Shown: piece by piece, positions 3,503-42,200 of the stretch
How the letters are laid out: every line of letters starts with the position of its first letter
How positions within the stretch are numbered: position 1 is the stretch's first letter
DNA from: an uncultured Methanosarcinales archaeon
GTDB taxonomy: Archaea; Nanobdellota; Nanobdellia; Woesearchaeales; CAYSVS01
Length of the DNA stretch: 44,482 nucleotides
Reading direction: 5' to 3'
NCBI GenBank assembly: GCA_964479425.1
Contig: CAYZMD010000002.1
Coordinates: forward strand, 1-44,482
Program-made: the position numbers and the translations under genes
Notes under the pieces: model-generated
What the model was told of the DNA's origin: nothing
Database searches by the model: none
Seen by the model: only the letters and a program-made list of their open reading frames with translations

Positions 3503-3513
3503 ATGTAATTCTT

Positions 3514-3532: not shown

Positions 3533-3567
3533 AATTTCCAATATATTCTAGAAAAGAGGTAAAATGG

Positions 3568-4705: not shown

Positions 4706-4740
4706 AGTTTATTAACATATAATGTATTCTTTACTATTCT

Positions 4741-7478: not shown

Positions 7479-8858
7479 TTATGCAAACACCTTTTCCTTA
7501 ACCGTCTCATTAATATCATCCATGATTTCTTTGAATGAGTCTTCAAGATTGTTCATTACTATTTGCTCTTTAGCCTTTTGGAACCATTGAACCATTACTG
7601 ACTGTGTAGAGTTTATCCCAGCTATCATGTCTTTCATGTTTATTTTTCTTCGTTTTTTTGTAACCATGCTTTCTCTTAGAGGAATGTCAGTTGCAGATTC
7701 GCAGACTGCTTTAATATCAGCACCCGAAAACCCTTCAGTTAGTGTTGCTAGTTTGTTTAACTCAAGTTCATCAATAGGACGGTTTTTCATTTGAATTCTA
7801 ATTATTTGTTTTCTTGAATTAAAATCTGGTCTTGGCACATAGATTGTTTTTCCAAATCGTCCTTCTCTTCTGAGTGCAGGATCGATTGACCAAGGTTCAT
7901 TGGTCGCTGCCAAAAGCAAAATTTGTTGGTCTTTTGAGTCCATTCCATCTATTTCTGTTAAAAGCTGTGCTACAGCGGATTTTTCGTGAGCAAGACCACT
8001 TGTCCTATCGCCACCAAGCGCTTCAAATTCATCAAAGAAAATTATGCTAGGTTGTTTTTCTCTTGCAGTCTTAAAAAGTTCTGCAATATTTTGTTCTGTT
8101 TCTCCTACATATTTACTTTTTAAATCAGAACATTTTACGTGAATAAATGTTGATTTTACTTCATTTGCTGTTGCTTTTGCAATCAAACTTTTACCACATC
8201 CTGGTGGACCATAAACTAGTATTCCACCACCTATATTTTTTTTATAATATTTAAATAATTCTGGATTTGTCAAAGGTTCTATAATTTTAAAATGTATGTC
8301 TTCTTTTAGAGATTCAAGACCACCAATATCATCAAACTTAATTGTGTTATCTTTTGAAGTTAATATTTTTCCTGCATTTTTTTTAAGTTCTTTTGCTTTT
8401 ACATAAATCCTATTTGCTAGAGCAATACATTCATCTTCTTTCGCAGAATTTTCTTCTGATTGTTCAAGTAACATTTCTGCTGCTTTTAGATAATTATCTG
8501 CAGCTTTCTTTGGAGCTTTTTTTTCTAATTCTTTACCAAGTTTTACTAATGTCATTATACTTTTTTCTTCACACATTTCTTTTTCACCTTTTTTTATCGC
8601 TTCAGTTTCTTTTAGACAATTTCTTGCAAGCTGTTGTTTTGATAGCTCTTGAGTTATTTTATTGCCTATTATATCTTGTGAAATTTTGTAATATTGATTT
8701 GCTATTTTTACAAACTCATCTTTTTTTTGTATTTCTGCTTGTAACAAATAAATGCTTACAGCCTCAAGATAGTTTTCTCTTGCCTCTGTAATTTTGTTTT
8801 TTGCAAGTTTTGCTTTTGCAAGCTCTACGTATTTTTCTGCATCTTTAATTCCGCACAT
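7479..8858 (-). CDS. AAA+ ATPase (Vps4/CdvC/spastin-like clade) with two N-terminal MIT-like helical domains
   Basis: Walker A is GPPGCGKS and Walker B is IIFFDEFEA; there is a single AAA module. Two about 60-aa helical segments (AEKYVELAKAKL...YYKISQDI and LVKLGKELEKK...IYVKAKELKK) resemble MIT domains. Confidence 0.8.
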   Translation of the reverse strand: MCGIKDAEKYVELAKAKLAKNKITEARENYLEAVSIYLLQAEIQKKDEFVKIANQYYKISQDIIGNKITQELSKQQLARNCLKETEAIKKGEKEMCEEKSIMTLVKLGKELEKKAPKKAADNYLKAAEMLLEQSEENSAKEDECIALANRIYVKAKELKKNAGKILTSKDNTIKFDDIGGLESLKEDIHFKIIEPLTNPELFKYYKKNIGGGILVYGPPGCGKSLIAKATANEVKSTFIHVKCSDLKSKYVGETEQNIAELFKTAREKQPSIIFFDEFEALGGDRTSGLAHEKSAVAQLLTEIDGMDSKDQQILLLAATNEPWSIDPALRREGRFGKTIYVPRPDFNSRKQIIRIQMKNRPIDELELNKLATLTEGFSGADIKAVCESATDIPLRESMVTKKRRKINMKDMIAGINSTQSVMVQWFQKAKEQIVMNNLEDSFKEIMDDINETVKEKVFA

Positions 8859-8859
8859 T

Positions 8860-9492
8860 TTAATGAAGTATCCTATTTTGTGAAAGTTCGTTTCTTATTA
8901 AATTCGTAAGTTCAATTCTTGATGGAACCCGTTCTTTTCTTATTAATTTTCTAAGATTATCTTTTGTTGAAGGTAGTGGATTCATATTGATATTGTCTAT
9001 GTTTAAGTATTGTGTTGAAGGTAGATTCATATTGATATTTCCTATGTTTAAATTTTCAGATATTATATTTGGGACGTCATTAGCCACGTAAAGGTTATCT
9101 TGTGCATTATCTTCAATACTTTTGAATGGAATTGAATTGTCTATTGCTGTTACTTTTTCTGTGGATGTTGAATTTGGAATGTATATGCTATTTGAGATGT
9201 CAGACGCTCTGTATACCTGAGAAAATTGACTAGCATCATAAGTTGGCGTATTGATGATAGTAGTATTTGAATTGTCTATTGCGGTTACATTTTCTGTGGA
9301 TGTTGAATTTGGAATGTATATGCTACTTGAGATGTCAGACGCTCTGTATACCTGAGAAAATTGATTCGCATCATAAGTTGGCGTATTGATGATAGCAGTA
9401 TTTGAATTGTATCCAGAATTAACACTATAAATATCATTTAGGTTAACTAAATCATTAACTAACGGACTGTAACCTGCAATTCCTGAAAACAT
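8860..9492 (-). CDS. Asn/Ser/Thr-rich repeat protein (hypothetical), coupled to the AAA ATPase gene
   Basis: The stop lies 1 nt before the AAA start codon. The gene contains two 45-aa tandem repeats (NTPTYDA.QFSQVYRASDIS.SIYIPNSTSTE.VTAIDNS), a short LNI.NINMN repeat and a basic amphipathic C-terminal helix. Confidence 0.6.
   Translation of the reverse strand: MFSGIAGYSPLVNDLVNLNDIYSVNSGYNSNTAIINTPTYDANQFSQVYRASDISSSIYIPNSTSTENVTAIDNSNTTIINTPTYDASQFSQVYRASDISNSIYIPNSTSTEKVTAIDNSIPFKSIEDNAQDNLYVANDVPNIISENLNIGNINMNLPSTQYLNIDNINMNPLPSTKDNLRKLIRKERVPSRIELTNLIRNELSQNRILH
9136..9405. repeat. 2 x 135-nt tandem repeat (about 95% identical) inside the 210-aa gene
   Basis: The copies at 9136-9270 and 9271-9405 differ at about 7 positions. 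A partial third unit starts at 9406. Confidence 0.9.
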
Positions 9493-9502
9493 TGGTATAT
9501 GG

Positions 9503-9790
9503 TTGGAGCATACTATTTTTATCGCCTTGAGACTTTTAAGTTATTGTATAATATATAGGTTAAAGTTATTTATAAAGAAAATCAGGATAAAAGATAGGTA
9601 CGTGAGACATTTATGTCATGATGTTGCTAAACGAATTGTTCCTGACATACTAATTGAAGAGGATTGCGAATCAATTGATGTAAGTAGGCAAATACTTACA
9701 GTAATTGAATGCAAAAGTACAACAACAGACGAAGCAATAAGAGATATGAGAATTGCAATGGAATATGAAAAAATAAAGCAATGCTATTAG
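9503..9790 (+). CDS. Doubtful ORF, possibly a remnant of a PD-(D/E)xK nuclease gene
   Basis: It has only a TTG start. The sequence PDILIEED...ILTVIECKS looks like a D...ExK motif. Downstream, a shifted frame reads LLVIIDINLLLMLM, reminiscent of Mrr-type C-termini. Confidence 0.3.
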   Translation: MEHTIFIALRLLSYCIIYRLKLFIKKIRIKDRYVRHLCHDVAKRIVPDILIEEDCESIDVSRQILTVIECKSTTTDEAIRDMRIAMEYEKIKQCY

Positions 9791-9903
9791 TTATCATAGA
9801 TATCAATTTACTTCTAATGTTGATGGTAAATCAAGATTCAAGGAGTTTTTAAAAAAGAAAAAGGCGGAGGTTTAGAATTAAAAAGACAATTTATTTCATC
9901 GAA

Positions 9904-11549
9904 CAGGCTGTCTCACAATTACCAACTTCCCAGTTTCATCTCTCGACGAGAGATAGAAAAATTTATATACTTCCTCGTCTATAGAATTAGTAAACACGAG
10001 GTGATTCTACATGGTTTACATCAAATCAAACCCAAAACAAACAATGCTTCTCCCAACTAACTTAAGAGATATAATCCCTAAAGATCATATCTGTTATTTA
10101 ATAGAAGATGTAATTAATCAATTAGATTTTAGTAATTATGATAAAAAAGTTGAAGGAGCAGGAAATCCAAGTTATCATCCTAGAATTTGCTTAAAGATAA
10201 TTATAAATGGAATTTGCGAGAGAGTTACTTCAACAAGAAGGCTGGATAAGCTAACATATGAAAACATAGTTTTTAGATATTTAGCTGAAAACCTTAATCC
10301 TGATTTTCACACGATTGCTTTGTTTAGAAAAGAAAATAGACTATTAATAAAACAAAGTTTTTTACAAACAATAGAGGTTGCTAAAAACCTTAACATGATT
10401 AACTTTAATAAGCTTTATCTTGATGGAACTAAGATAAAAGCTAATGCTTCTAAAAGCAAGAGTTTTACTAAAGAAGAGATTGGTTTCTTGTCAGATTTTG
10501 TCGACGAACATCTTAAAGAGATGGATAAAGTCGACAAAGAAGAAAATAAAAAGTATGGTGATTCAAACGGAGAGCCAAAAATACCTGACCATCTTACAAG
10601 CAGAAGAAAATTGAGAGAGAAAATCAAAGAGATTTTGAAGAATACTGATAAAGCAAAGAAGCAAATGGAAAAAGCCAAAACTAAGATTAAAGAAGAAAAA
10701 GTTGACAAAGTCAACTTAACAGATATGGATTCTAAGTTGATGAAAATGAAAAAAGGTCTGCATTATGAGCAAGCTTACAATTGTCAGCTTCTTGTTGAGG
10801 ACAAAAGCGAAATAATTGTTGGAAATTATCTTTCTGATTCTCCTAATGATAGTCATGAAACAATTCCAACAATGGAAAAGTTTAAGCAGGAGCAAAAGGT
10901 TAACTTGAGTGGAGTTGAAGTCTTCCAGGATAATGGATTTTCAGGAAGCAAGACAGCTGAATATTACGAAAAAAAAGGTGCAATTGCTTACATCCCTGAC
11001 AGAGCTACAACAAAAGAATTGCATGGTAAAGCATACCGAATTTCAAAGTTTGATAATGATAATTTTAAACTTGATTTTAAAAAAAATCAAGCTATATGTC
11101 CTGTAGGACATAGGATGAATTTTGCAAGAAAGATAATTCGGAAAAAACAAACAGGCAATTGGACAAATATCTATAGGACAAACAAATGTGATAATTGTAA
11201 ATTCAAAAATGAGTGTGTTGGAACAAAAAAAAGATATCGTGAAGCTATGATAAATCCTTTAATGAGAAAAATAAGGCTTCGTTTTAATACCAAAATGGGT
11301 ATTAAAAAGTATAGCAAAAGATTTCACAAAGGAGAAGTGGCTCAGGCACATATATTTCATAATCTAGGTTATAGGGAATTCAAGTGTAGAGGAGAAAATC
11401 CATGTGAAAGTGAAGTTAATTTGATGTCAATTGCTTATAATTTAAAAAAAATACATAATAAATTGAAAAAAATTGGAGGAAGTTTAGATACGAGTATTAA
11501 AAAAATGTGTTTTCGTTTTTATTATTATTTGGAATCATAAGACAACCTG
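9904..11549 (+). mobile_element. IS1182-family insertion sequence (1,646 bp) with imperfect terminal inverted repeats and a 4-bp target site duplication
   Basis: IRL is CAGGCTGTCTCA (9904-9915). The reverse complement of IRR is CAGGTTGTCTTA (11538-11549). About 15 of 23 terminal nt match. The element is flanked by CGAA at 9900-9903 and 11550-11553. Confidence 0.75.
10011..11540 (+). CDS. IS1182-family (IS5-like) DDE transposase
   Basis: The N-terminal DUF772-type region reads GNPSYHPRICLKIIINGICERVTSTRRLDKL...FRYLAENLNPDFHTIALFRKEN. YLDGTKIKANAS and QDNGFSG carry candidate DDE acidic residues. The C-terminal segment ...YREFKCRG...LMSIAYNLKKI is typical of the family. Confidence 0.88.
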   Translation: MVYIKSNPKQTMLLPTNLRDIIPKDHICYLIEDVINQLDFSNYDKKVEGAGNPSYHPRICLKIIINGICERVTSTRRLDKLTYENIVFRYLAENLNPDFHTIALFRKENRLLIKQSFLQTIEVAKNLNMINFNKLYLDGTKIKANASKSKSFTKEEIGFLSDFVDEHLKEMDKVDKEENKKYGDSNGEPKIPDHLTSRRKLREKIKEILKNTDKAKKQMEKAKTKIKEEKVDKVNLTDMDSKLMKMKKGLHYEQAYNCQLLVEDKSEIIVGNYLSDSPNDSHETIPTMEKFKQEQKVNLSGVEVFQDNGFSGSKTAEYYEKKGAIAYIPDRATTKELHGKAYRISKFDNDNFKLDFKKNQAICPVGHRMNFARKIIRKKQTGNWTNIYRTNKCDNCKFKNECVGTKKRYREAMINPLMRKIRLRFNTKMGIKKYSKRFHKGEVAQAHIFHNLGYREFKCRGENPCESEVNLMSIAYNLKKIHNKLKKIGGSLDTSIKKMCFRFYYYLES

Positions 11550-19464: not shown

Positions 19465-19600
19465 TGAAAATTATAATTTTACGGATTAGTATATCCTTAG
19501 AAGCTATAGCTTCTGGGACACCAAAAATTTATAATTTTTGAGTGTACAAACCACAAGAATTTAAAATTTTACTTGTGGTTCAGTATATAGAATTATAAGT

Positions 19601-19868
19601 GAAGGCACGCCAGTAGATGGATACAAAAACCAAACATTAGCTACCTCAAACTTTCCTCCACTCCGCAACCCTTAAAGCACCAACACCATGGATTAAGGCT
19701 GCTTCATTCCTGATCTGACCTGGTTCTCTAAAATGCCAGTCCATAAGGACAGAGCTTCAATGTACGATTCAAGACTAATGTAAAGCTCAAATACCGCTCT
19801 ACTGACTCACTCTACCATATAGCCCGTTTATAGTTACAGGTAGGGGCTAACTACCCAGCTACGCCTTC
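19601..19868 (-). ncRNA. Signal recognition particle (7S) RNA
   Basis: On the minus strand, the Alu-domain motif CCUGUAAC lies near the 5' end. The S-domain helix-8 motif ACCAGGUCAGAUCAGGAAUGAAGCAGCC is present. The termini GAAGGC.../...GCCUUC pair. The segment is a G+C-rich island. Confidence 0.88.
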
Positions 19869-19890
19869 AAGACAATAGATTCTAACATGG

Positions 19891-27249: not shown

Positions 27250-30200
27250 CTAATTTAAGAAATTTTCATTAACCATTTCTTTTATTTCATTTTCTGTATA
27301 ACCTTCACTAAATGATTTAATAACAAAATAATCTATTTCATTATTCTTTTTAGATGGCCATCTTTTTCCATGCAATTTTCTCAATTCATTAATTAATTTT
27401 ACTTTAGGCGCTAGGAATTCCACTTCCTGCTCAACAATATTCTTTATAGTCTCAAGATCTTTAATTCCAGAATTAGTATAATATGAAATTCTTTTACCAA
27501 CTTCACCTTTCATTCTTGCAGGATATTCCAACATTGCTAAAACACGAGTTTTTATGCCATTAGGACTTAAAGGAAGCTCAGCTATATCACCACTAATTTG
27601 ATCAAATGCCTCTTCTACACTATTAACGTCATATGAGTTATATAGATTGTAAAGTTTATCCCGTATAAGAATGAATCTATCTAATGATTTTTCTAATTCA
27701 CGTTCTTTTGATTTGAATTCACCTTCAATGATTTCAGCAATCATTGATTGAGATAATCCTTCTTGGCTCAATTCTTGAGATCTCAAAACCTTTTCTTCTC
27801 GAAGGTTAATTAGTCTCTTCTCAACGCCTAAGACATCTTCATAATTATCTTTAAAATCTTTAGTGTCAAAAATAGATTTAATTAAATTTTTGAAAGATGG
27901 CGTAATTTCAAAATCGTCACCCAATAAAAAATCAATAATAAGGTTAATTTTCATAGGTTTTCCTGGATGAAAATGTCCTAAAGTTGAAATAGGGTCTCCG
28001 GAATACGCCACGTCGTCCTGAGCACTCATAATAAATGAAAATGGAGGAGTTTTTTTCCCTTGCCTTTTGGCAGAATCAAGAACCTTTACAAAGAAAGAAC
28101 TTTCCTGATCCACAATACTTGGATTATGATTAATAATAATATTTGTCAAAAGCTCTATATCTTCTAAATTTGCCCCATTTGCAACAATAGCCTTTCCGTC
28201 ATTTTCAATTCTAAACTGGAATCCGTTTTCTAAAGTCTGTAATCCGGGAGTAATATATTGTGAAATAGGATTTTCATGTTCTATTACTTCACCATCCACT
28301 GTCACAAATTGTGTAGGGGTCATCATATCAAAACCAGATATTGATTTAGTTTCAGGTGCTACAGCTATATCATTAATTTTTTGCATTCTTTCTGAAATGG
28401 GACTAATCGCGCCCGCATCTCCGGTGAAAAGTACTTGGAGTTCCTTATCCGTATCTTGATAATAATCAATAATACCTTTAGCATATTCTTCTGCTTCTTC
28501 ACCAAATGGTTGCGTTGTTACCAAAACAGTTTTATATCCTTCAGGAGTCTTGATTTTGAATCGTTCTGCAGTTATTTTACCCTTTAATTCTTCAACGATT
28601 TCAAAATCTGTTGCTGGCAAAACCTTTTTTATTGCACCTATATCGCCTATTATCAAAATATCGGGTTTTATAATATTCAACGCAGATTTAATTTGTTTAT
28701 CAATCCTTGAAATATGTTTTATTCTGATAATCTGATTAGGATTAAATCCTGCTTGATATAGTGCAGCCTGTAATTGCATTTCCTTTTGTGTGCCTTTTTT
28801 AAGAGTGTTGATAATAATTCTTTTTTCTCCAGTTTCATAATTCTCGGCTATTAAAAATTCAAACGCATTCTCAAAGGGAATGGAATATTTCTTTACACTA
28901 TCAAATCCTTGATCTTTTAAAGTCTTTAATACATCTTGACTTTCGCCTTTATGCATATATAGCGTCCATCCTTGGTTCACCATAGCTTTCAGATGGGGAA
29001 TAATCCTTCCTTTGATATATTCATTAATCTCATTAGTTGCCCAAATTACTCGACCATCATTAGTTATTTGTTTGTAAAATATGGATTTATCCATACCAAC
29101 AACATAATACACATCATTTACAACACTAGTTTTTGAATTTCTTACAGCAAATTTTCTAAAAATTATTTGAGATGGTGGTATCAAGGCATCAATTTCTAAT
29201 TCAAATTCTTTATTGTTTGGAGCCTTCAATACGATTTTCTTCATAATTTTTATGTTGCCATTAACATCTCTAAATTCATAAGAATCTGATTCTGACACAA
29301 TTATATCTACTAGATTAAATACTTCCTCGTCAGAATATTTTTCTACTCCCTTACCAATACTAGCTATTTCAGGGCTAAAACCTGTATTCCTGTTCTTAAT
29401 AGAACCACGATCTGCCAAAATGGTTTCCAAGTCTTGAGTTTCTTTTTCCAAAAAGACTTGCACTTTCTGCCCTTCCAGATCATCAGATGTATGAACTACT
29501 TTTTCCTTTTTTACACCATCTTCAAGATACTGCAATAAAATGTTTTCTAACCTATCATCAATAGTACCCTTCAAATAACCATTATTTAGACGTGTATCCG
29601 AAATAATTTGTAAATTTCCATCTATATCATAATAAAAAATATCAAATATACTATCCTCAATGTTATATGCTTCAGCATATTGACCATCAACAATTGTGGG
29701 TACAGGAGTTCCTAGCTCCTCTCTACGTCTGGCATATTCCTCACTTACTTTTTCTTCAAAATCTCCCTTAAGTTCTGGAGTAATTAATAACAATATTTCT
29801 AAACCTACTGTTCCTTTAACAAACTCAGGATCATGATTGAGTAATTTTTTTATCAGATTTGCATCTTCTTTACTTATTATACCCGTCCTCTCGAAGTTTG
29901 CAGTAAGCGTCATAACGAAATTATCAATAATCTCTTTTTTTGCATTATATAATTTAGTTATGAAATCAAACTTCGTATTTTGTTCAGTTATTGTGGATTC
30001 AGCTCTATTAATAATATCATTAATAGATTCTATTTTAGAAGAAATCTCCTTCTTATTCTCACTAGGAGAGAGTATTGATTCAGAATACCCAAAATAAGTA
30101 ATAAAATCTATAAGCGTATCGCGACTATCCCACACACGCTGAATACTAGTTGTGTCGATTTCTTCGTTTAGTCTTTGTAATTCTGCTTCAATTTTTTCAA

Positions 30201-33200
30201 TAGATTCTCGATTACGCCAATTCTGAAAACGATTATACCAATTTTGTAATATTCCAACTCCAAATAATCCTACTTTGGGTGTTGTTGATAATTGTAATTC
30301 ATCTAATTCATTTTCTAAAGTTTTGACAATATTTTCCAAATTTTGGTCATCCTTAGTAGCGGGGATATTGTCTTTAATTGAAGTATCTGAAGGTTCATCT
30401 GGATTCTTTAAATCCGATAATAATTCAACATTCTTTCTTTCTTTATTATTATCCGGAGTTGTATAGTATGTTTCTGAAAACTCTAAAGTTTGTGGAAGCT
30501 CAATTCCTTCTGTAAGACTTGTATCAACTACCTTTGCCTTCCCAAATACATCATTATTTACAAAGCCCAAAGTTAAATGCAAATATTGTCCTTCATCCCC
30601 TTCTTGTTTTGCAGTTTTAAATCCTAACTTTGTTCTGAAAGCCTCTATTTTTGGACTTTCAATAACTAAAAAATATGTTACCTTATCTTTACTTGAATCT
30701 TTTTTATCTTTCTTTATAACCTTTCCAATTCCTTTTACAGAAACATCATCAACAGTACCCATTTCCTGTAAAGCCCTAGTTACAAGATCTGGATTTTCTT
30801 TCATTATTTTAGATTCGGTAGGACTCATTATTGTAATATGACTTCCAGTTCCTCTCCTTGATTCTAATGTTTCCCTTAAACCAGTAACTCCCTCTTTTTC
30901 TTCTATAGCTGCAATTATCCCTTCAAGATTAGTTGAGACTGAAACGCCTAAGTGGTTTACTTTATTTATTTCTGGAACAACTACTTCTTCAACGATTGGT
31001 GCTTCAACAACAACCTCCTTAACTTTCTTAGATTTTTCAACAAGCTCAGATAATTGAACAAGAACTTCATCTGCCTGGTCTTTATATTTAGCAGTAAAAT
31101 CTTTTGAAAATTCATTTGTTATATCATCGAGTGTAACTTCTTTTTTACTATTAATCATTGGACCAAGTTTGGGCATAATATCTTTTGCCTGCAAATTTAA
31201 AGCGACAAGTCCTGAAGATATTTTTCCTGAATCGTATTCAATAGTATCACCAGTAACACCTTCAATCGACAACGCATTCAAATCATTATTCAATGTGTTT
31301 GGTAAATTGCTTTCTCTTAATCTTCTCTTTGTATTGGAAGATGCTAATACGTGAGTTTCATATGCTGGAATATTTTCTTTTTCTAATAAGACTTCATCAA
31401 TTTCATGTTTTAGAATTAATTCAATAGCTTCATTAATTTGTTGTTGCGAATAACCTTTACTTTTCAAGTTTTTTTCTATTTTTGCCTTATCGACTGTAAT
31501 AATCCATTTCCCGTCTATTTCTTCTGATTTTGCAAATTCTGTTGCATCTCCGTCCTTGATTGTAATGCCTTGAACATCCTTCCCTCCTTTGACAATATCG
31601 GCTGCAGTTAGGCCAATCTTATTTGTGTCGTCATAAGCTTGATCTTTTTGTTGTTTGTATTTTTTCAATACTATTTTTGCAACAACCTTCTTTAAGTCGG
31701 CATCCTTTAAGTAAGTGAAGGAGATTGGGGAGAACCAACCCAAGACCCGACCGACTACTTCCTTTGCAACTGATCTTTTTTCTATTTTTACTTTTTCATC
31801 CGAAACATCAAACTGTTTCTTTTCAATCAATTCTTTATCCAAAATATAAAGTTCATCTTCGAAAACAAAGATATTTTCTGCTTTAGGTATCTTAGAAGAG
31901 GAATAATATTCATCACCTCTAGTAATGCTATCAGCAACAAAGTCATTTCTTGCGAATACTTCAATATTATTTGTTTGACTATCTCCTCTAAATATTCGAT
32001 TATAACTTGGGGTTTCCCACGAATCTATTTTTTTAGACATAGGTTTATCTGAATAAGATGGAAAGAATATCCCCTTTCTGAGAAATTCTAATTCTGTAAA
32101 TTCTAATTCTTTTTCCATATGTACTTCTGGATTTCTGTTATTTAATTCATTAGCCTGAACTCCTGTTGAGCCGTCCTCATTTGTAGCATAATAAATCAAT
32201 TTTGATCCATGAGTGTCAAGCAAATAATCAAAACGATATGGGATCCAAGAACCTATTAATGCATCCACATATTTTCCAGTTGATTCTTGTAGCGCTGCAG
32301 TATCTTCTTTAATAAATCGCGCTTTAGCTATATCTAATTCCCTAATATTGTCATACATTGGCTTATATACTCTCTCTATCAAACCTTGCATCTTCTCTCT
32401 GATAGATTCTATTTTTTCTTCATATTGTGGAGTATCTTCATCTAAATTTTCCCTTTCTTCCTCATACTGCCCCATCTCTGCGATAAACTCTTTACGTAAA
32501 AGATCTATCTTTTGTTCTAACTTAGTTATAGTAGAAGGATATTCAATTGTATTAATTCCAAGCTGTTTTATCTGATCCTTGAATGTAACATGATTTCCTT
32601 TGATGAATGTAAATTTAAGTCCAGCATTCTTTCCTTTTGGATTTGGCACCCATACATTCTCGATTGTTTTGTGAGGAATAAGGTCATATTTATCAATCGC
32701 CAATTCAATTTGTTCTTTGTCTGGATCAACACAAATAACCTCAGCACCTTTCTTTGCTAATAAATATTCTACTATTCCTGTACCTGACCCGACACTAACA
32801 AATACAGGAACCTTATTAGTTGAAACAGATTTTGTCTGTTCAAACATCCTTTTTATATCAATTGATCTTGGTATCCAAAAATTATATACGTTTTTCTTCC
32901 AATCGTTAAATGTAGATTTTTCATCAGCTGCTTTTAATTGATATCTTGTATCTTCATCAATTATTTCTGTTTCTGGAGTTTCTATTAGCTCTTTTGGTTT
33001 TCCTTCTTCATATTCATTAACCTCTTTCATCCTATCCAATTCTGCTTCTATTTCTTCAATCTTTTCTCTATTTCGCCAATTCTGAAATCCGTTGTATAAA
33101 TTCTGTAACGTACCAATTCCAAACATTCCTACTTTAGCTGTCGTTGATACTTTTACTTCTGCAAGTTTTGATTCTAAATTATTTATTGTTTTTTCAATAT

Positions 33201-36200
33201 TTTCGGTTGATTCTGTTAAGCTTGGGTCTTCGTCTTGGATCTTTTGGAGTAATGGGTCCTTTGCATCCAACAATAACTTCACATCCTTTCTAACTTTATT
33301 ATCGGCAGGAGTTGTATAATATGTTTCTAAAGAATCCAATGTTTCTGGTATTTCAATCCCGCTTGTTAATCCTTCATCTACGACTTTAGGCTGATTAAAC
33401 ACATCATTGTTAACAAATCCTAAAGTTAAATGTAAGTGAAGAGCTTTAGCTTTTTGCGCATCGGAAAGATCATCGGAATATGTTATAAATTTAGTACTCT
33501 CGGGATTTTCCTTAAGAGTCTCTTGTCTAAGTTTTTCTCTAAACTCTCTGACTTTTTGACTATCTACAACTAAATAATATGAAACTTTATCTTTAGCTGA
33601 ATCTTTTTTATCTTCTTTAATAACTTTGCCAATTCCTTTTACAACCAAATCATTAATTTCACCCATTTCTGCAAGAGCTTGTTTTACAAAATCGGGATTT
33701 TCTTTCATTATTTTTGAGTCTGTTGGAGGCATTATGGATAGATGATGTCCTTCCCCTCTTCTTTGAACTAAAGTATTTTTTAACCCAGTAACTCCCTCTT
33801 TTTCTTCTATAGCTGCAATTACTGAATCAAGATTAGTTGAGACTGAAACACCTAAATGATTTACTCTATTTATTTCTGGGATTACTACCTCTTCAGCTAT
33901 TGTTTCTTTAACAACAGTTTTCTCAACTTTTTTAGAACTTTTAACAAGCCCATATAATTGACCAAGAACTCTATTTGCTTGCCCTTCATACTTTGCAGTA
34001 AAATCTTCTAAGAATTCTGCTCTTATATCATTATTTGTAACTTCTTTTCCTTTAGCAATTATTTCACGTAGTTTATCCATAATAATATTTTTTTCTTCGT
34101 CTTCTTTAAATCCTAAACCTTCAAGCCCTGATGAAATTTTTTCTGAATCGTATTCGATAGAATTGCCCACAACTCCATAATCAAGAAGTGCTTTTCTAAC
34201 ATCATGCGGAATTTCTACTTCTTTCATAAGATTATTTTTCTCAGTAATGATTTTATTTGAATAAGTGCTTTCAAGATAAAGTCCATTAACTCTTGGCCCT
34301 AAATCCCCTTCTCCCAACTTGTGTGCTTCTTCTATAGCACTTGTCCACTCTGAATTATACTCAATTCCCATTTGTGCTACAACAGCTCGTGCTTTTTGCT
34401 CGGTTGATAAGTCGTCCCATTTTTCGTTTGGAATGTAGGATTGGGTGATGCCTATTTTAATTTTATCGAGGAGAGGAGATTGAGAAGATTCTTTAGCAGT
34501 TTCCTGTTCCGCAGGTTCTATATCTCCAAATAAAGATGATTCTGGAACGCCTCTAAGCAAAGAGTTCTTTAACACTACACTTTCAACATCAACACCATTG
34601 TCTTCTAAAATGTTTTTTGCATATGGTAAAGTTTCTGATGGAGGACGAAAATGCCCTGAACCATTATTAATTTCTACAAGCACCCATTTTCCATTTCTTT
34701 TTTCAAAGACAATTTCACCAGCGCCGTAAACATTTCTCCCTTTACTTAATTCTGAATGTGCAGCTCGACCAGTAATTACTCCTTTCAAAACTTCTTCGTC
34801 AAATACCATTTCACCGTCTGCATTGATGATGTAAATAAATTTAATTATATTTTGTTCCTTTTTTTCTACAATTTGCTTTGCATTTTTTTCCCATCCTGAA
34901 TTTAATTGATAATCATATATTTCAACTAATTTAAGAAGCAGTTCTTTTTCTTTTTCATTATATTCATTAGAAAGTTGAGTCTTGGTTTTTATATTGGAAT
35001 CATCGGATTTGATTGGAGCATCCCTTATTGTAATTCCCTTTTGAGCTAATAGTTGTTTTATATCTCCTCTAATAGATTCAATCTTCTTTTTATTTATTTG
35101 ATAACCTTTTTGTAAACTTATTAATTCTTTATATAATAAACTTTGAGGATCTAAACTTGATATAAGATTAGGTAAATTTTGTAAATAATTAGAGAATCTC
35201 TTTTCATTTTGTTTTATCATCTGAAATTCTGCTTTATTATATGCAACATGGTTAGAGAATTCTTTTATTTTTGTTTTTCCTGTCTCTGGATCGTATTCGG
35301 TTACGGAAATTGAAAATCTATCTAGATCTGGATTATTTAAGTATTCTGTTAATTGTTCTAAAGTTTTGAATCTCTCAGGATTATCATAATTTCTTCCTTT
35401 TTTACCTGGTTTTTTATTTGTTTCTTGTATTGCATCCATCATTATATGGTCTAGGTCTAATACAGATCCTTCATCAAAACCAGCATATTCAAGACTACGT
35501 CTTTGCTCAGATTTTACATCAAAATTAGGAGATTCTTGTCTCGAAATTTCATAATCCCTTATTTTAGAAATTCTTTCTTTCATTAAATCAAAAACTTGAA
35601 CTCTTTGTTCTTGAGACAACATATAGGATTTTTTTACTTTTGCTACTTCCGGATTTTGATTAAGATAATCCTGAAAACTATTAATCATATTTTCTAAATA
35701 AGATTCACTAAAGTCGCTTACTGAATTTAATTTATTATTTTTATTTATTATTTGTTTTTTTTCTTTAAACTCTTTCCAAAGAGCTTGGTTTCTAAAATTC
35801 TCATATTCAATAAAAGATTTTGCAGATAATATTTTAAATGGGTCTTTAATAAATTCTGCAGGCATATTTTCAATATTTGGTGAGGTAATAATTCTTATAA
35901 TAGAACCATCAAGTATTGCCTGATGTATCCCATTAACTACTTCCCAATCTTCTTTTGTATACGCTTTATTATCATTATTAAAATCTAGCCCGTTATTTGA
36001 TTCTGAAGATTTGAGAATAAATCTATATTCTGATCCACTCGGTAAAAGCATGCTATATACTATCTCTATATCTTTAATTTGTGCGAATTCTCCAACACTT
36101 TCACCTACAGCCCATTTCATAAAATTAGCGTCAATCCTACCTGATAATTCTATAGATGCACCATCTATTAATCCATCCTCTATTGCTTTTTGATACTTTA

Positions 36201-39200
36201 AGGCCTGGTTCCTATTTGCTTTTGTGGAACCATAAGCCAATCTCGGATATTTTTTAACTTCATATACAAAAGGTTTCCCTTTATCGATTGCAATATCAAA
36301 ACTAATTTTTGATTTAGTTGCTTTATCTGGAGCATTTGAAAAATCGCTTTTTCTAAATGCAAAGTATTCTAATGATATTTCATCAAAATAATCAACATTT
36401 ACTAAATTTTGAGATAACAGTGTTTGGTATCTTGAAATAACAAACAGAACACCATCTAAAGCAGTATATTGTCTTGATTCCTCTTTATTTTTCAATGCAG
36501 AATCTATTAATTTATTATTAGACTCTATTATCTTCTCTATAGATTCTGCCCTTAGCCCCTTTTCCCGAAGTAAAACCTCTAAGTTAACGAGAGCAATTCT
36601 TGTTTCTTTTTCTTTAAATTGAACTATGTCTACTATTTTTGTTAAATCACTTAAATCTGAACTTAAAGATGGATTTATGTTTTCTAACGCTCTAAATCTT
36701 CTTTTGGTGTTTGACGAAGAAAGCACGTGAGTATCATATTCATTAAGACTACTTTCTTCTTGTATAAGTATTTCATCGATTTCGTGTTTTATAACTAATT
36801 CTAATATATCTGTCATATCTGATTCATGATTTTCTTTTAAATTAGAATTCAATTTTATATAATCAATAGTTACTATCCAATTATCTCCTTTTTTACTAAT
36901 TTGAGTAATTGTTGGAAGTCGACCTACTACTATTTCAATATTATTTGTTAATTTTACTTTTCCTTCTTTCAAAAAAGAAGTAGAATCAAAATTATTCATT
37001 AACTCATTAGTTTCATCATGAACTTTGCTTTTCAAATTTTCATTTGTTTTCAAAGCATCTCTGGCAATTTGTAAATTTAAAGCTTCCTCACCTAAATATG
37101 AAAAAGAAAATGTAGTTTGAACTTCAGCGTCAACCGTTGGTGCTGACTCTACAGTAATAGTTTCTGAGGCTATGTCTTTTTCAGAAATTAATTGTTGTTC
37201 ATTTTTAATATTCTTTAATCTCTCGTCGATATTATCAGTTGGTTCAGTGATTTCATACCCTTCTTCTATACCATTAATCACATGTTGATTCTCATCAAAA
37301 TAAGGTACCCAAATTTGACTACCTGCTTCTTTTTTCAATACAAGAATCATAGGCTTACCTAAATTATAAGCAAAGTGCATCATGCCACCTTCTACAGTAA
37401 CCACTTTATCTGAATTTTTTACAAATTGATTTGTATAACCCTTGGAAGGACCTGGAAGAACATGAGCATGTTTTCTTTGTTCAGGTGTTAACATATCATA
37501 AACTTGCGTTGCAATATCTTCTGTTCCCCATATTTTATCATTAGGAGAAATAGCAATAAATTCTCCGCTATCAATTAATTTCCCTATGTCTTTTGATAAT
37601 TGATCTAAGCTAGTATATCCTTTATTATATCTTTGACCACCAAAGCCATTAAACAAAGTAACTTTACGATTTTCATTATTTTTAGATACAACATTTTTAT
37701 CCCAATATTCATTAGCTTCAGCGTCCTCTTTAGCAACAATAAAATTATCAGTAACTGGCTGCTGAGTGCCAACTCTCATTGGTAAGCCTAAATATGCTAG
37801 CATTTTAGAACCTGGTGAATATACATTTGTTTTATCTTCAAATTGAATATCTGCTCCATCAATATCTAAATCTACTGAAAAAGAAACTTGAGCCATATTC
37901 ATTTTTATTGGAGCTTTCTTTTCTTTGACAATCTTATCCATTTCATTCAGACCACCATAGAAACTATCAAATTGAACAGTCATATCATAATCATTATTCT
38001 TAAAATCCTCTTCCATTAAAGAGAGCTCTTTTGTTTCAAATTTTTCTGATTGGCTATATAATTTTGGCCTATTCGTATAAAGAATAATTTTTAAATTTGG
38101 ATACTTATCTTTTAAAGCTTGAATTAAGTTTGCAACCCTGATAAGTTCATCTCCCATACCATCGCGAATTTGATGATATACTGCCACAGTATTACCTTCT
38201 CTAAGAATTCTATCAAAATTATTTACATCATCAAAATATGAGTAAGGAATGTTATGTTTTTTAGCATACTCTTCATTTAATTCCACATTTTCAGATTGTG
38301 CTTTTAAAGATAATGCTGTTACTATATTTTTTTCAGAAATAAAACCAACAGGAATTGACTCCTCTAATAACTTTTGAAGTAATAAATTAGCATTCGAAGA
38401 CGAGTATAAATCAACAATATTATCATATATTAAGTCTAATACTTTTTTCTTAACTTCTTTATAGTCGGGGTTAGACAAAGCATCAACTAATAATTCTGCT
38501 TTATTTGGCATTTTTATTAATATTTTGAATGCTGCATTTGAGAGCTTAGGATCTTTTAAGTTTTTAATCATAGAATTAACTACTCTTTTATTAATAGAAG
38601 GATCAATAGCAGCCCAATGTTCTATAACGCCTTCAAGACTTTCTTGTGATTTTTCATTTTCAAAATCTTCACTTAATCCAATAATTAAATCGCCCAAAAG
38701 CCTGTTGCTCTCTAAAAATTTATAAGTAGTAAAGTAAAGATCTCCTCCCAATGACATTTGAGAAAATCTGCTTATTAACTCATTAATTAACTTCTTATTT
38801 CCTACTCTTGCAATCCCTTTGATAACAGAATCTTGAAATGAACGGCTTGCTTTTTCTTTCATTAATAATTCTTCAAGAAGCGGTGCTGCATTATCTCCAC
38901 CCAAAAAAATAATTTGTTCAATAATTATATCAAGGTAGCTGTACTTAAGAGAGGAGCTAGGTACATTAGGGTTAAGTGTCTTAGCCTGGTCTATTAAAAT
39001 GTCAAGAGATTCTGGAAAATATCCTAAGCCTCTAATAGCTATACGCCTTATATCTTCTGAATCATCATTCAATAATTCTTTATACATTTCAAAATCACGA
39101 TAACCAAGGTTTAGCAAATATCTAGCAGCTGAATCTCTTGTTTCCGGGTCTTTAACAGCATCTACTAATATTTTTAAAGCCAAAGGATCTTTAAATTTTT

Positions 39201-42200
39201 CAAAATATTCAGCAGCAGCATAAACTGCATTATATTTATATTCTGGATTTAACGCTACGTTCTGTAAGATTTCTATAACTCTATCGTCTTGGAATGGGAT
39301 TGAAGACAAGGCCGAAATAATATTTTTATTATCTATCTGATTTTGACCATACATTGAAATTAATATATTCCATTCTTTTACATTTGCATCTTGCTCCATT
39401 GCCAATATTGCTACTTTTCTTATTTCAGGGGAATATGAATCTGATAAAAATTGCTCAAATAGTGGTCTTGCTTTCTTTGAATTCATACGTTTTAAAACAA
39501 TTAATGCTTGTTGCTTTTGTACGTCAGTACCAGTTTTTAAGAATTCTATCATTCTATCTTCAGCGACTGAGCCAAATTCACTTAAAGCCCTTAATGAATC
39601 ATGAGGATAACGTAAATTATCTTCATAAACCTTAGGAAACATTGAGATGATTATGTCAATTGCTACAGGGTCGCCTATTTTTTTAAATATATCAATTAGA
39701 TCAGAATTATCAATAGAATCAATATTTTCAATTAATAAAGAAATAGCTGGTTTTCCAATTAATTCTAAAGCATCCTTAGCTCTCCATGATTTTCTGCCCT
39801 TTGTTTTTAGTACTTCTACAAGTTGTGGAATTAAAGTTTCGTAATTTAATTCGTCAACTTCAATGCCAGCTTCTTTTACCTTCTCTAATATTTGTTCTTC
39901 AAGAGATGGTTTTGATTCTGTTCTTTTATATTCAGCGATTGCTTGATTTCTTTCTTCAATGGTTTTTAAAGAAACAATTTTGTTAATATCATCACCAGAC
40001 ATCCTAGCTAATTGCCAATATATTGCTCTTACTTCTTTAAAATTTCCTTCAAAATTATAAAAATAATCACGTAAAAGAATACGCCTAGTATCTCCTACAC
40101 TTTGTGATGAAATTTCGATTTCAGAACCAGTAAAATATAATTCTGAATACGTTCTTTTTAATACATCAGAAACATAATTATTATTCTTAGGGTCCAATGA
40201 TAAATCTAAGAGAGTTGCATATACTCTTGAAGGATTATCTAATATCCTTAAAGCCTCAATTGCTTTTGTCTTTTCTACGCCGTAAGAAGGTTCAGATAAT
40301 TTATTAAACAATTCATTAATTGTATTTTCATAGCTTTTACTAGTATCGATTCCAGCTTCGTTTGCCAATTTTATTATTTGTGCTTCTTTATCCTGGGAAT
40401 TTATACCTACAATATTTTCAAGTAAACTTTCAGAGGCTTTTCTTTGATTATCAGTTATTATTTTTCTCTCAAGAATGTAAGCTTCTATTTGCTTGTCAGT
40501 TATTATTTCTCTATCAAAAGCGTAAGCTTCTGTTTCAGCTTCTTCAATAATAGCTTTCTGATCTGCAATCTTCTTTTCCAAATCTGAGATTTGTTCTCTA
40601 TTACGCCAATTTTGAAATCCGTTGTATAAATTCTGTAATGTGCCAACTCCAAATAGACCAACTTTTGCTGTTGTTGATACTTTTACTTCTGCAAGTTCTT
40701 TTTCTAATTCATTAATTATTTTTTCGATGTTATCAGTTGATTCTGTTTGTATTAAACGTGAGGCTTCATCTTGGATTTTATATCCTTCTTTCTCTTGTTC
40801 AAGGTTAAATTGTAATTGTTCTAAATATTCTATTGCTTGTTTCGCATCATCTTTAGAATAATATACCAATGATTCTTCTGTTTGTGTTTCACGTAAGTTA
40901 TTAACAGCTCTAATTCGTGAATCGACATTATCTAATGAAGTTTCTAAGCGCCTTTCTAGTGAATTACTACGAATTAATCTATCAGCGCTTTCCTGAACAT
41001 CTTCATTTTCACTTTCTAACATTTTATCAAAAGATTTTACTTCAATATTTTTTCCTTTTTCTTGAGATAATTTTTGAACTAATTCTACTTTATCTCTAGG
41101 AACATATAATACTAAATTATCAGTATCAACGCTTTCTATACCACGTTCACCTGGAATAGTTGATGCAACTTTGACTGTTTCACCTTCATGTCTAATTCCA
41201 TATAATATTGAGAAAGGATTACTTATTAACTCTTTTTCCAAATCACTTAATTCATTCCAGCCTTCTATTCTATTTATTAATAAATTAATTCTTAGTTCTA
41301 AATCCTCTTGAGTATATCGCCATTCTCCCCCTCCAACTCTTTCTCCCCTAGCAAATTTTTCTTTTGTTGCAAGCAAATATGATAACTCAAACTTACCTGA
41401 TTCTGGACTCCATCCTTCTAAACTGTCTGATCTTAAAGCATAATCAGTGCCCCGATCTATAAAACGGGCTTCTACTACTGAAACATAATTTTGACTAACT
41501 CCCGCTATACCCCCAACTAATTCTCCAGTATAGGTTGTAGATGAGTCTTGCTGACCAAATGGTACTAATCCATTATCTATAATATTTAGTAAACTTCCTG
41601 AACCTGAACCATGATAAAAATTAGGTTCATTTTCCTCTTTGACAATATCTTCCAAAGCTTTCTTAACTGGTTCTTCAGCTTTAATCTTTGAATTTAATCC
41701 AGGCAAGACATTATTTTGATAATTGTAACTTGCAATCTCATTTACTTTTTCTAAATAAGGTTGTAATATTTCTAATGGCAAACCATTTGGATATTTTTGT
41801 TTGAATTTTGTAATATCATCATCTGTTAAAATATTTTTAGCATCACGACTTGGCACTTTATATAATACGTTTTCAATGTCTTGAGGATTATCATTTAAGA
41901 ATGCTAATATTAATTTTAATTCTTGATCTTCAAATTGGGATTTCTTATTATCTTCTGTTTGAAGATAGCTCTCATCATTGTCTTGGATATTTTGTTGCTT
42001 TTTATTTTCTAATAATTGATTATTAACTTCTTTAGCAATTGCTTCTTGCTCTGCAATCTGTTTTTCCAAAGCTGCAATTTTATCTCTGTTACGCCAATTT
42101 TGAAATCCGTTGTATAGATTTTGTAATGTGCCAACTCCAATGAATCCTATTTTGGATGTTGTTGAACCTCTTATTCTTCTAAGTTCTTTTTCTAATTCAT

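Follow-up and report, generated by a model that had tools for sequence, protein, structure and literature searches.

The giant open reading frame and its host

The window, that is, the whole analyzed stretch of DNA of 44,482 nt, was derived from an uncultured DPANN archaeon of a salt lake. The host was typed as Nanoarchaeota/Woesearchaeota by its LeuRS, whose relatives belong to these groups; the archaeal RNase P RNA and SRP RNA were both located in the window. Host dependence is generally assumed for this lineage (PMC10066038). More than 17 kb of the window is occupied by a single gene.

27250 to 44482, minus strand: giant ORF, at least 5,743 codons, frame still open at the contig end (44481)

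Since the frame stays open up to the contig end, the true N terminus is missing; in the part of the protein encoded on the contig, no transmembrane segment was predicted and no secretion signal was visible. Counting from the first ATG (position 44382), the ORF contains 5,710 codons, and the resulting 5,710-aa product was used for the self-comparison.

Two paralogous cassettes within one gene

The giant gene harbors two paralogous copies of one cassette. In each copy, a four-helix region is joined through a disordered spacer to a 2H domain, which ends in an ETYYTTP strand and is followed by a linker designated “L.”

32965 to 34227, minus strand: cassette copy A (aa 3386-3806), with helical region, 2H domain, tail, and linker L3
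30163 to 31320, minus strand: cassette copy B (aa 4355-4740), with helical region, 2H domain, tail, and linker L4

The two copies are colinear, with a protein identity of 57 to 60% and a DNA identity of about 70%. When the 5,710-aa product was compared with itself by BLASTP, the segments aa 3386-3588, 3451-3750, and 3601-3787 aligned with aa 4355-4556, 4419-4703, and 4569-4740, respectively, with identities of 49 to 59% and E values from 6e-62 to 2e-87. A pairwise MAFFT alignment gave 57% identity across 438 columns and placed a 17-aa insertion of copy A immediately before motif 2 of the 2H domain. The DNA repeat families D2 to D4 (72 to 77% identity) had a start-to-start spacing of 2853 to 2916 nt. 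Colinear paralogous blocks in one gene, 2.9 kb apart, had been proposed by the first-pass annotation, and self-BLASTP, MAFFT, and the DNA repeats all bear this out. The blocks had been placed at 33020 to 34165 and 30165 to 31245; the similarity reaches about 25 codons beyond the IEYDS start of that annotation in the upstream direction. All peptides quoted at that time were found in both copies, namely, PEIN[RK]VNHLGVSVSTNL, AAIEEKEGVTGL, SKIMKENPD, VKGIGKVIK.DKKDS.KDKV.Y, HLTLGFVNNDVF, and ETYYTTP, and the longest identical ones are positioned around the 2H motifs. The term “tandem” for the two 2H modules was loose: there are two copies, but about 970 aa separate their 2H domains, and this interval contains a methyltransferase-like region as well as another domain.

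The cassette core is a 2H phosphoesterase domain

Each cassette could be subdivided as follows.

33937 to 34158, minus strand: N-terminal helical region of copy A (aa 3409-3482), beginning with IEYDSEKISSGL, assigned by homology to the modeled copy B
33307 to 33861, minus strand: 2H domain A (aa 3508-3692), NHLGVSV to ETYYTTP, with the 17-aa insertion before motif 2
33721 to 33744, minus strand: motif 1 of copy A, HLSIMPPT (H3547), beta-strand in the model
33397 to 33432, minus strand: motif 2 of copy A, HLTLGFVNNDVF (H3651, HLTL)
31018 to 31242, minus strand: N-terminal four-helix region of copy B (aa 4381-4455), model pLDDT 85 to 92
30454 to 30957, minus strand: 2H domain B (aa 4476-4643)
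30817 to 30840, minus strand: motif 1 of copy B, HITIMSPT (H4515), strand E134-139 in the model
30544 to 30579, minus strand: motif 2 of copy B, HLTLGFVNNDVF (H4602, HLTL), strand E221-228 in the model

A search for relatives of the four-helix region of copy B detected none beyond the two copies. The pattern H[ILVM][ST][ILVM] had only four occurrences across all 5,710 residues, every one of them within the cassettes, two per copy. Each domain thus carries two H-x-[T/S]-x motifs roughly 80 to 110 residues apart, the arrangement that defines the 2H superfamily. Both copies scored above the curated Pfam cut-off of 27 bits for PF22547 (2H-SAK), copy A with 28.7 and copy B with 50.4 to 60.5 bits, and copy B gave in addition a weak match to PF13563 (E value of 0.014). 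In the family collected with a profile of the cassette, PF22547 was matched by all 14 members, LigT_PEase by 5, and 2_5_RNA_ligase2 by 3 of the 14; the cross-matches were to PF02834, PF13563, and PF10469. A search with the family profile retrieved only PF22547 or PF13563 proteins, and 59 of the 59 recovered proteins carried PF22547; they were named “2′-5′ RNA ligase” or [quoted passage not shown] The invariant columns of the family alignment were two His, Thr, Gly, Phe, and Asp. Besides the two H-x-T/S motifs, copies A and B retain the family-invariant Pro, Gly-x-Gly, Arg, Gly-Phe, and Asp. As far as can be read from the residues, the complete catalytic signature is kept in both.

The AlphaFold model of copy B reached a pLDDT of 80, with both motifs on beta-strands, and that of copy A a pLDDT of 68, which is low confidence, with the same structural neighbors as copy B. 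In a Foldseek comparison of copy B with predicted viral structures, the best match was a phage SAK 2H protein (E value of 1.6e-4, probability 1.0), followed by multidomain RNA ligases of Gordonia phages, 2′-5′ RNA ligases, and RNA 2′,3′-cyclic phosphodiesterases; six matches had an E value of 1e-3 or below, mostly to 2H proteins. The top PDB matches of both copies were nearly all 2H enzymes (cGAMP PDE, Acb1, drCPDase, Usb1, CNPase, LigT, and TT0787), individually at nonsignificant scores (best E value of 0.017, TM 0.3 to 0.44), and at the sequence level there was no significant similarity of the copies to solved structures. Motifs on strands and 2H enzymes as neighbors agree with the 2H alpha+beta fold, more weakly so in the model of copy A. 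The 2H phosphoesterase domain at the core of each cassette belongs to the “Swiss Army Knife” type, PF22547. The first-pass annotation had made its 2H call dependent on a 2H-family match in a profile or structure comparison. Such matches appeared in both, so that, together with the cassette duplication, the earlier observation and the domain call hold. The PF22547 family itself is already known; the architecture found here is unusual and nearly an orphan.

Other domains, age of the duplications, and growth of the gene

Outside the cassettes, most of the giant protein could not be annotated. The following features were recognized.

43798 to 44475, minus strand: remnant of an N-terminal calcineurin-like metallophosphoesterase, cut by the contig end, with the motifs GDYDGPG and GNHD
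42499 to 42876, minus strand: HEAT repeats (aa ~503-628)
42016 to 42231, minus strand: linker L1 (aa 718-789), no 2H domain before it
40528 to 40743, minus strand: linker L2 (aa 1214-1285), no 2H domain before it
36640 to 37200, minus strand: HE..E-motif domain copy 1 (aa 2395-2581), 33% identical to copy 2
32965 to 33213, minus strand: linker L3 (aa 3724-3806), core sequence STTAKVGMFGIGTLQNLYNGFQNWRNR
32587 to 32817, minus strand: region with a class I SAM-methyltransferase-like motif, VSVGSGTG (aa ~3856-3932), between the cassettes
31267 to 31839, minus strand: HE..E-motif domain copy 2 (aa 4182-4372), KHEIDE, directly upstream of cassette B
30163 to 30366, minus strand: linker L4 (aa 4673-4740)

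The metallophosphoesterase remnant possesses the GD..D..G and GNHD motifs and matched PF00149 with an E value of 0.002 and 19 bits, which is below the cut-off of 21.5 bits. The methyltransferase-like region contains motif I and matched several methyltransferase families at E values of about 1e-3, with all Pfam scores below the curated cut-offs. No kinase, ligase, HAD, or nucleotidyltransferase domain was found in Pfam (whole protein at E values of 0.1 or below, nine segments at 5 or below) or in NCBIfam. A complete RNA-repair “syntax” is therefore absent from the giant protein, which also contains no Walker A motif.

Between the complete cassettes A and B, dN was 0.30 and dS was 0.80; the values for the 2H core were 0.26 and 0.93, which is a dN/dS of about 0.28. 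The duplication is old, and purifying selection has acted on both 2H copies ever since. The most recently duplicated unit comprises the helical region, the 2H domain, the tail, and L, with a dS of about 0.4 to 1.2. The pair of HE..E-motif domains results from a separate and much older duplication, with a saturated dS of about 2.2. The earlier proposal that the gene grows by cassette duplication needs a corresponding nuance: helices, 2H domain, tail, and L were indeed copied as a unit, but the HE..E pair was duplicated separately and far earlier. With its four copies of L (L1 to L4), the giant gene may have been assembled from modules that each terminate in L, a conserved element about 70 aa long. 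Since the helix bundle, 2H domain, and L were copied together, the gene probably grew at least partly by duplication of L-bounded cassettes.

Possible functions of the 2H domains

With both cores under purifying selection, the 2H domains A and B are probably active phosphodiesterases. By analogy to the chemistry usual for the clade, the processing of RNA 2′,3′-cyclic-phosphate or phosphodiester ends would be their most likely role. They may open or trim such termini in a CPDase- or LigT-like end “healing” and may act beside the putative N-terminal metallophosphoesterase and the SAM-methyltransferase-like region of the same polypeptide, with the HEAT repeats as a possible scaffold for these putative nucleic-acid-end enzymes. 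In the genomic contexts inspected, no conserved repair operon surrounded the free-standing 2H family members. Taken as a whole, an explanation by paralogous SAK-type 2H cassettes that are presumably active, most likely process RNA ends, and multiplied by L-bounded growth appears reasonably probable.

This explanation requires that the locus is real. The window is one metagenomic contig, and the searched collections contained no protein identical or closely homologous to the giant one. Such findings could point to a duplication created by misassembly or chimera formation or to a giant ORF that is not a gene at all. Unitigs from four independent salt-lake metagenome runs, however, tiled the region from 29500 to 35000 at about 100% identity with one SNP, zero indels, and zero joints, so that copy A, copy B, and the 1.7 kb between them were all covered. 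With only about 70% DNA identity between the copies, a collapse or misjoin is implausible, a 17-kb open frame cannot arise by chance in a genome with 30% G+C, and purifying selection is visible in the codon-position pattern, leaving an artefact exceedingly improbable. A loss of activity in one or both 2H copies, which would then be RNA- or nucleotide-binding or structural modules that changed their function after the duplication, deserves more consideration but is still improbable. Copy A barely exceeds the Pfam cut-off, has Ser at the Thr position of motif 1, contains the insertion before motif 2, and yielded the low-confidence model; moreover, a giant protein from Omnitrophota (see below) contains a degenerate, motif-less 2H-like module after an active-looking one. 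On the other hand, H-x-S is an accepted variant of the 2H motif, all family-invariant residues are intact in copies A and B, the longest identical peptides surround the motifs, and the 2H core has a dN/dS of about 0.28.

Instead of RNA ends, active 2H domains may degrade nucleotide second messengers, such as cyclic di-, tri-, or oligonucleotides or 2′-5′ oligoadenylates, of a host or partner. In that case, the giant protein would be a factor that the DPANN archaeon, as an episymbiont, delivers for counter-defense or interaction. The first-pass annotation had preferred this reading; its effector status and its host-defense signal as substrate found no support in the analysis. Among the PDB neighbors were the penguinpox cGAMP PDE (probability 0.91), the phage Acb1, the BCSR5 phage PDE, and a viral RNase L antagonist, and Acb1 proteins appeared also in the list of viral structures. 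The lineage of the archaeon is regarded as host dependent, and the nearest 2H sequence from a large protein belongs to the 7,337-aa multi-enzyme protein from Omnitrophota, likewise an ultra-small lineage with host-dependent traits. However, these structural matches were weak (E values of 0.017 to 0.4) and have the generic 2H fold in common, whereas the best-scoring structural and sequence relatives are of the SAK or LigT type and linked to RNA ligases. The searches found no viral relatives, none of the defense-related profiles matched except a HEAT/ARM model, and a secretion signal or transmembrane segment was not visible in the protein lacking its N terminus. Signal degradation is rather unlikely, and RNA-end processing stays the favored reading.

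Comparison with known systems

With the PF22547 2H-SAK family, both copies share scores above the cut-off and the same two H-x-T motifs, the second as H[IL]TLGF...D[VI][HF], and the best structural match of copy B is a phage protein named for this domain. Most recovered family members, however, come from bacteria and are free-standing, with a length of about 200 aa; here, an archaeal protein exceeding 5,700 aa contains the domain twice, fused to a private four-helix region and the L linker. SAK RNA-repair proteins, as reportedly described by Burroughs & Aravind in 2016, unite 2H-SAK in one polypeptide with one or more SAK-type HAD phosphatases, a polynucleotide kinase, and/or an RNA ligase. 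Unlike these systems, the giant protein contains, as judged by the Pfam and NCBIfam scans, no HAD_SAK phosphatase, polynucleotide kinase, or ligase domain, nor does it have a Walker A motif, and it does not qualify as a SAK RNA-repair protein in this sense.

The Pnkp/Hen1 RNA repair system comprises a metallophosphoesterase, a P-loop kinase, an adenylyltransferase ligase, and the Hen1 2′-O-methyltransferase, and Trl1 is a multidomain RNA end-healing and -sealing enzyme with a 2H CPDase domain. As in these enzymes, phosphoesterase activities and possibly a methyltransferase may be combined in one system, but kinase and ligase are not detectable in the giant protein, and its metallophosphoesterase and methyltransferase matches are below threshold. 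LigT/ThpR and the related 2′,3′-cyclic phosphodiesterases or “2′-5′ RNA ligases” of bacteria and archaea (PF02834 and PF13563; PDB 5ldi, 1iuh, 2d4g, and 5h7e) have the 2H fold and the catalytic motifs in common with the cassettes, are among the structural neighbors, and are cross-matched by the family members mentioned above; nevertheless, the sequence similarity to the solved structures is nonsignificant, and the match of copy B to PF13563 is the weak one given above.

The viral signal-destroying 2H proteins (Acb1, 7t26/7t27; penguinpox cGAMP PDE, 9ciw/9bkq; 4ye2, a viral RNase L antagonist with 2′-5′-oligoadenylate binding and enzyme activity) are top-ranked PDB neighbors with the same fold and motif geometry, but they score weakly, the cassettes are encoded on an archaeal chromosome and not by a virus, and the relatedness is that of a superfamily rather than of a family. 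With regard to Acb1, the poxvirus cGAMP PDE, and the NS2/VP3 clade, there was likeness only at the level of the fold (PDB E values of 0.017 to 0.4), and Acb1 ranked 24th or lower when copy B was compared with predicted viral structures.

The most similar 2H domain found inside a large protein is that of HRK61132.1 from Candidatus Omnitrophota (cluster of P0003; “DnaJ domain-containing protein,” 7,337 to 7,346 aa), which is 38% identical to copy B and shares with it IE.(K/I)EGVTGL and H(L/I)TLGFV(N/D)NDVF. Apart from the 2H domain, BLASTP between the two giant proteins revealed no homologous region; the Omnitrophota protein is bacterial, and its linker motif is unrelated to L. It has nevertheless a comparable bead-on-a-string organization, with 11 copies of the short inter-module motif RSE[AI]R and, after its 2H module, the second, degenerate 2H-like module. 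As a speculation of low likelihood, the archaeal protein could be an L-delimited multi-enzyme “polyprotein” of a DPANN episymbiont with L as processing or docking sites, and the released or displayed modules (two 2H phosphodiesterases, metallophosphoesterase, and methyltransferase) could act on the RNA ends or cyclic-oligonucleotide immune signals of the partner. If true, the giant enzyme arrays of Omnitrophota, which are punctuated by RSEAR, would be a parallel case, and the strategy would be a convergent one among ultra-small host-dependent prokaryotes.

Modular organization of the giant gene and its host

The giant gene of this DPANN archaeon is modular and carries an ancient cassette duplication that has been maintained by selection. 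A cassette consists of a four-helix region, a disordered spacer, a 2H domain ending in ETYYTTP, and a linker element, L. The following features of the gene, with amino acid positions counted from the ATG at 44382, are needed here:

27250-44382, minus strand, giant open reading frame (ORF), 5,710 codons from ATG 44382
42016-42231, minus strand, element L1 (aa 718-789)
40528-40743, minus strand, element L2 (aa 1214-1285)
36640-37200, minus strand, HE..E-motif domain, copy 1 (aa 2395-2581)
32965-34227, minus strand, cassette A (aa 3386-3806)
32965-33213, minus strand, element L3 (aa 3724-3806)
31267-31839, minus strand, HE..E-motif domain, copy 2 (aa 4182-4372)
30163-31320, minus strand, cassette B (aa 4355-4740)
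30163-30366, minus strand, element L4 (aa 4673-4740)

No stop codon precedes ATG 44382, and the reading frame continues through 44383-44481 (minus strand, reading VSTVVFNGDYDGPGFF...) as far as the end of the contig. This indicates a protein of more than 5,743 aa with a missing N terminus; the assembly has cut off the 5' end of the gene, and ATG 44382 is probably an internal codon. Motif I of a putative metallophosphoesterase and any signal peptide are expected in the missing part. No hydrophobic segment of transmembrane strength was present in the giant protein (best 19-residue Kyte-Doolittle mean, 1.46), which is predicted to be soluble. The 5,710 residues include a single Cys and 0.9% His, and a Walker A motif is absent.

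About 85% of the giant protein is without a family assignment; the unannotated stretches include aa 880-1200, 2030-2400, 2600-3390, and 4740-5710 as well as the HE..E-motif domains. Outside the cassettes, HEAT repeats were the sole part recognized with confidence. Signals below threshold came from an N-terminal calcineurin-like metallophosphoesterase (PF00149, E = 0.002, with the motifs GDYDGPG and GNHD), from a region with class I SAM-methyltransferase motifs between both cassettes, and, faintly, from a GT9-like segment. NCBIfam gave no match above its cut-offs, and the PADLOC anti-phage defence library gave a HEAT/ARM match only.

The window is a complete metagenomic contig of 44,482 bp with a G+C content of about 30%. 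The archaeal RNase P and SRP RNAs confirm the domain of life, and the leucyl-tRNA synthetase (LeuRS), with 71-78% identity to proteins of Nanoarchaeota-labelled metagenome-assembled genomes (MAGs) and 50-61% to many Woesearchaeota-labelled ones, identifies the organism as a DPANN archaeon. Other genes encode GyrA, an RlmL-like methyltransferase, and a presenilin-type signal-peptide peptidase. At least 14 runs labelled "salt lake metagenome" contained the cassette region.

25-2454, plus strand, gyrA, with the contig beginning inside an intein
3841-4135, plus strand, archaeal RNase P RNA (139 bits)
7009-7080, plus strand, the one tRNA
7479-8858, minus strand, AAA+ ATPase
8860-9492, minus strand, 210-aa ORF
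10011-11540, plus strand, DDE transposase (DUF772 plus DDE_Tnp_1_6)
19599-19870, minus strand, archaeal SRP RNA (122 bits)

The intein matched Intein_splicing at residues 8-66; GyrA of close relatives (loci L004 and L007) had no intein family match. The genes at 7479-11540 interrupt the order gyrA-rlmL-ribosomal protein genes-leuS, otherwise conserved in relatives (loci L004, L006, and L007), and are probably a mobile-element insertion.

Duplication of the cassette and its age

In segment-wise self-BLASTP, aa 3386-3787 matched aa 4355-4740 with an identity of 49-59% (E down to 2e-87), and MAFFT gave 57% identity over 438 columns. On the DNA level, the copies shared 72-77% identity in ungapped stretches with a start-to-start spacing of 2853-2916 nt. 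The duplicated blocks proposed by the first-pass annotation are thereby confirmed, and each of the six peptides it had quoted was found in both copies at the places given there. Logan unitigs of four independent runs tiled 29500-35000 without joints and, apart from one SNP, at about 100% identity, so that the duplication is real and an assembly artefact unlikely.

The 365 aligned codons of the two copies showed 60% amino acid and 70% nucleotide identity, with a dN of 0.30 and a dS of 0.80, and the rates differed along the cassette.

Substitution rates between cassettes A and B
Region; dN; dS; dN/dS
Helix bundle; 0.33; 0.42; ~0.78
2H core; 0.26; 0.93; ~0.28
Tail plus L; 0.34; 1.21; ~0.28

By these rates the duplication dates far back, and purifying selection has preserved the catalytic domain of either copy, which argues for both being functional. 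The 2H copies might instead be inert modules; the purifying selection acting on the catalytic domain of either copy makes this unlikely. Both 2H domains are probably active.

A second internal duplication concerns a domain of about 185 aa with the signature KHEIDE(I/V)L...(D/E)THVL(S/A)SSNTKRR, here named after its HE..E motif, for which no family match was obtained. Its copies are 33-34% identical, and copy 2 directly adjoins cassette B. Duplication of this domain together with the cassette in one event was rejected: the HE..E pair is saturated at synonymous sites (dS of ~2.2; third-position identity of 0.39 versus 0.35 for random) and the cassette pair is not. The saturation indicates an older, separate event. 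Growth of the gene by cassette duplication, as suggested by the first-pass annotation, is thus supported, the most recent unit being helix bundle, 2H domain, tail, and L.

Cassette anatomy and L elements

Copy B was modelled with AlphaFold2 (aa 4381-4650, 61-sequence alignment; pLDDT 80, pTM 0.59). Model residues 5-70 form four helices (pLDDT 85-92), followed by a disordered spacer at residues 77-94 and an alpha+beta domain that extends from NHLGVSV to ETYYTT. Strands 134-139 and 221-228 carry the first and the second HxT motif, respectively. ETYYTTP forms the final strand of this domain rather than an element of its own, and a poorly conserved stretch of about 30 residues separates it from the L element. 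The model of copy A was weak (pLDDT 68).

An L element of about 70 aa consists of a helix, the motif STT.K.G.FG.GTLQN.YN.FQNWRNR, and another helix. The four copies split the giant protein into modules and bound the cassettes. L1 and L2 share 80% DNA identity, and L3 looks mosaic, with an N-terminal half like L2 and a C-terminal half like L4, which is compatible with recombination among the L copies. Processing, docking, and recombination are conceivable roles for the element. Directly after L2, a tandem 45-nt (15-aa) repeat occurs at 40436-40525 (minus strand; two copies, 80% identity; ...YAFDREIITDKQIEAYILERKIITDNQRKA...).

The cassette core is a 2H phosphoesterase

The motif H-[ILVM]-[ST]-[ILVM] occurs exactly four times in the 5,710 residues, as H3547 and H3651 in copy A and H4515 and H4602 in copy B. 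Both copies exceeded the curated cut-off of 27 bits for Pfam PF22547 ("2H-SAK," the Swiss Army Knife 2H phosphoesterase domain), copy A with 28.7 bits and copy B with 50.4-60.5 bits; copy B also matched PF13563 weakly. When 1.84 billion representative proteins were searched exhaustively with HMMER, the two-copy profile returned only 12 at E <= 1e-3 (best, 1.2e-14), all with the two H-motifs. PF22547 was matched by every one of 14 aligned sequences, LigT_PEase by 5, and 2_5_RNA_ligase2 by 3. With the 14-sequence profile, 59 further proteins were obtained, mostly of 137-254 aa and all with a precomputed PF22547 match, which were named "2'-5' RNA ligase" or [quoted passage not shown] in their sources; named organisms include Pseudobacteriovorax, Bdellovibrionales, and a Cloacimonetes MAG. 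Invariant columns comprised both His, the Thr, Gly, and Asp of motif 2, the Pro after motif 1, and an Arg; the motif 1 Thr, the central G-x-G, and the motif 2 Phe were invariant in some alignments and nearly so in others.

Among predicted viral structures, Foldseek placed an uncultured-phage [quoted passage not shown] at the top for copy B (E = 1.6e-4, probability 1.00, TM 0.52 on the target), followed by Gordonia phage multidomain RNA ligases, 2'-5' RNA ligases, and RNA 2',3'-cyclic phosphodiesterases, with Acb1 lower. Against the PDB, the top of the list for both copies consisted almost entirely of 2H enzymes, none at E <= 1e-3: penguinpox cGAMP PDE, Acb1, BCSR5 PDE, drCPDase, Usb1, CNPase, LigT, and TT0787. 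PDB chain sequences were also searched, using as queries the cassette profile, a profile of 61 sequences, and the giant protein in two halves; the only significant matches were HEAT-repeat designs. With PF22547 above its cut-off in both copies and 2H enzymes as structural neighbours, the 2H assignment of the first-pass annotation holds in profile and structure comparison alike. At the core of the cassette lies a 2H phosphoesterase of the SAK type whose catalytic motifs are intact.

Relatives and genomic context

The domain family is already catalogued; the architecture is unusual and nearly an orphan. In a word-index homology search, cassette B by itself drew no match at E <= 1e-3; the window's own protein was missed as well. 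GTDB genomes scanned with the cassette alignment and with the L alignment contained no relatives, and viral contigs scanned with a 3-sequence alignment gave no match. Homologues of the helix bundle or of L were found in none of the GTDB genomes, JGI metagenomes, or IMG/VR, and no counterpart of the four-helix region was detected in other family members. One metagenome match to L was discarded as spurious, being outside any ORF at an unrelated locus with ambiguous residues (X) in the translations.

Four neighbourhoods of free-standing family members revealed no conserved operon; the RlmL-like methyltransferase, BipA GTPase, and beta-CASP RNase encoded there are a weak RNA-related hint. An orthologous giant gene was sought by LeuRS synteny. 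The contig of the closest relative stops right after LeuRS, and a more distant relative had no giant gene within 10 kb of LeuRS. In another relative (locus L007, 22084-22877, plus strand; LeuRS 67% identical), a 12,558-aa protein is encoded about 9 kb downstream of leuS; it is of the surface type with an N-terminal signal anchor and without similarity to the giant protein of the window. This indicates that giant genes of different kinds occupy this neighbourhood across the clade. Ultra-small host-dependent lineages are known to have giant ORFs, which are poorly understood (PMC10066038).

Possible function and comparison with known giant proteins

The most likely task of the 2H domains is the processing of 2',3'-cyclic-phosphate or phosphodiester ends of RNA, because this is the usual chemistry of the clade and, in phages, RNA ligases are fused to relatives by structure. 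The domains may act jointly with the putative metallophosphoesterase and methyltransferase. The first-pass annotation had also considered an "effector" that degrades cyclic or 2'-5' oligonucleotide signals; a fold-level resemblance and the presumed lifestyle of the organism are the basis of this alternative, which is less likely.

HAD, kinase, ligase, and nucleotidyltransferase domains were not found in the giant protein. It therefore does not qualify as a canonical "Swiss Army Knife" repair protein, despite the placement of its 2H domains in that Pfam family. With this protein, the range of the SAK-type 2H family now includes giant proteins of archaea. The modular growth pattern is clear, with cassettes bounded by the L element, and the small domains, which can be expressed and assayed, offer a way into an otherwise opaque 5,700-aa protein.

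The nearest 2H domain within a large protein, with 38% identity to copy B, resides in a 7,337-aa protein of a Candidatus Omnitrophota bacterium, which is not similar to the giant protein in any other region. It contains 11 RSE[AI]R motifs, 63-979 aa apart and apparently at module borders; one pair flanks the 2H module (5149-5312), and the next module is degenerate and 2H-like (5352-5463). By eye, Nudix-like, J-domain, and RelA/SpoT-like segments are among its modules. Possibly it is a polyprotein in which RSE[AI]R recurs as a cleavage site or linker; its likeness to the giant protein goes no further than a parallel in architecture.

In ultra-small host-dependent prokaryotes such as DPANN, Patescibacteria, and Omnitrophota, giant genes mostly lack annotation and are usually taken for adhesin genes. 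In contrast, the giant protein described here is predicted to be soluble and carries two conserved copies of recognizable nucleic-acid phosphoesterase modules.
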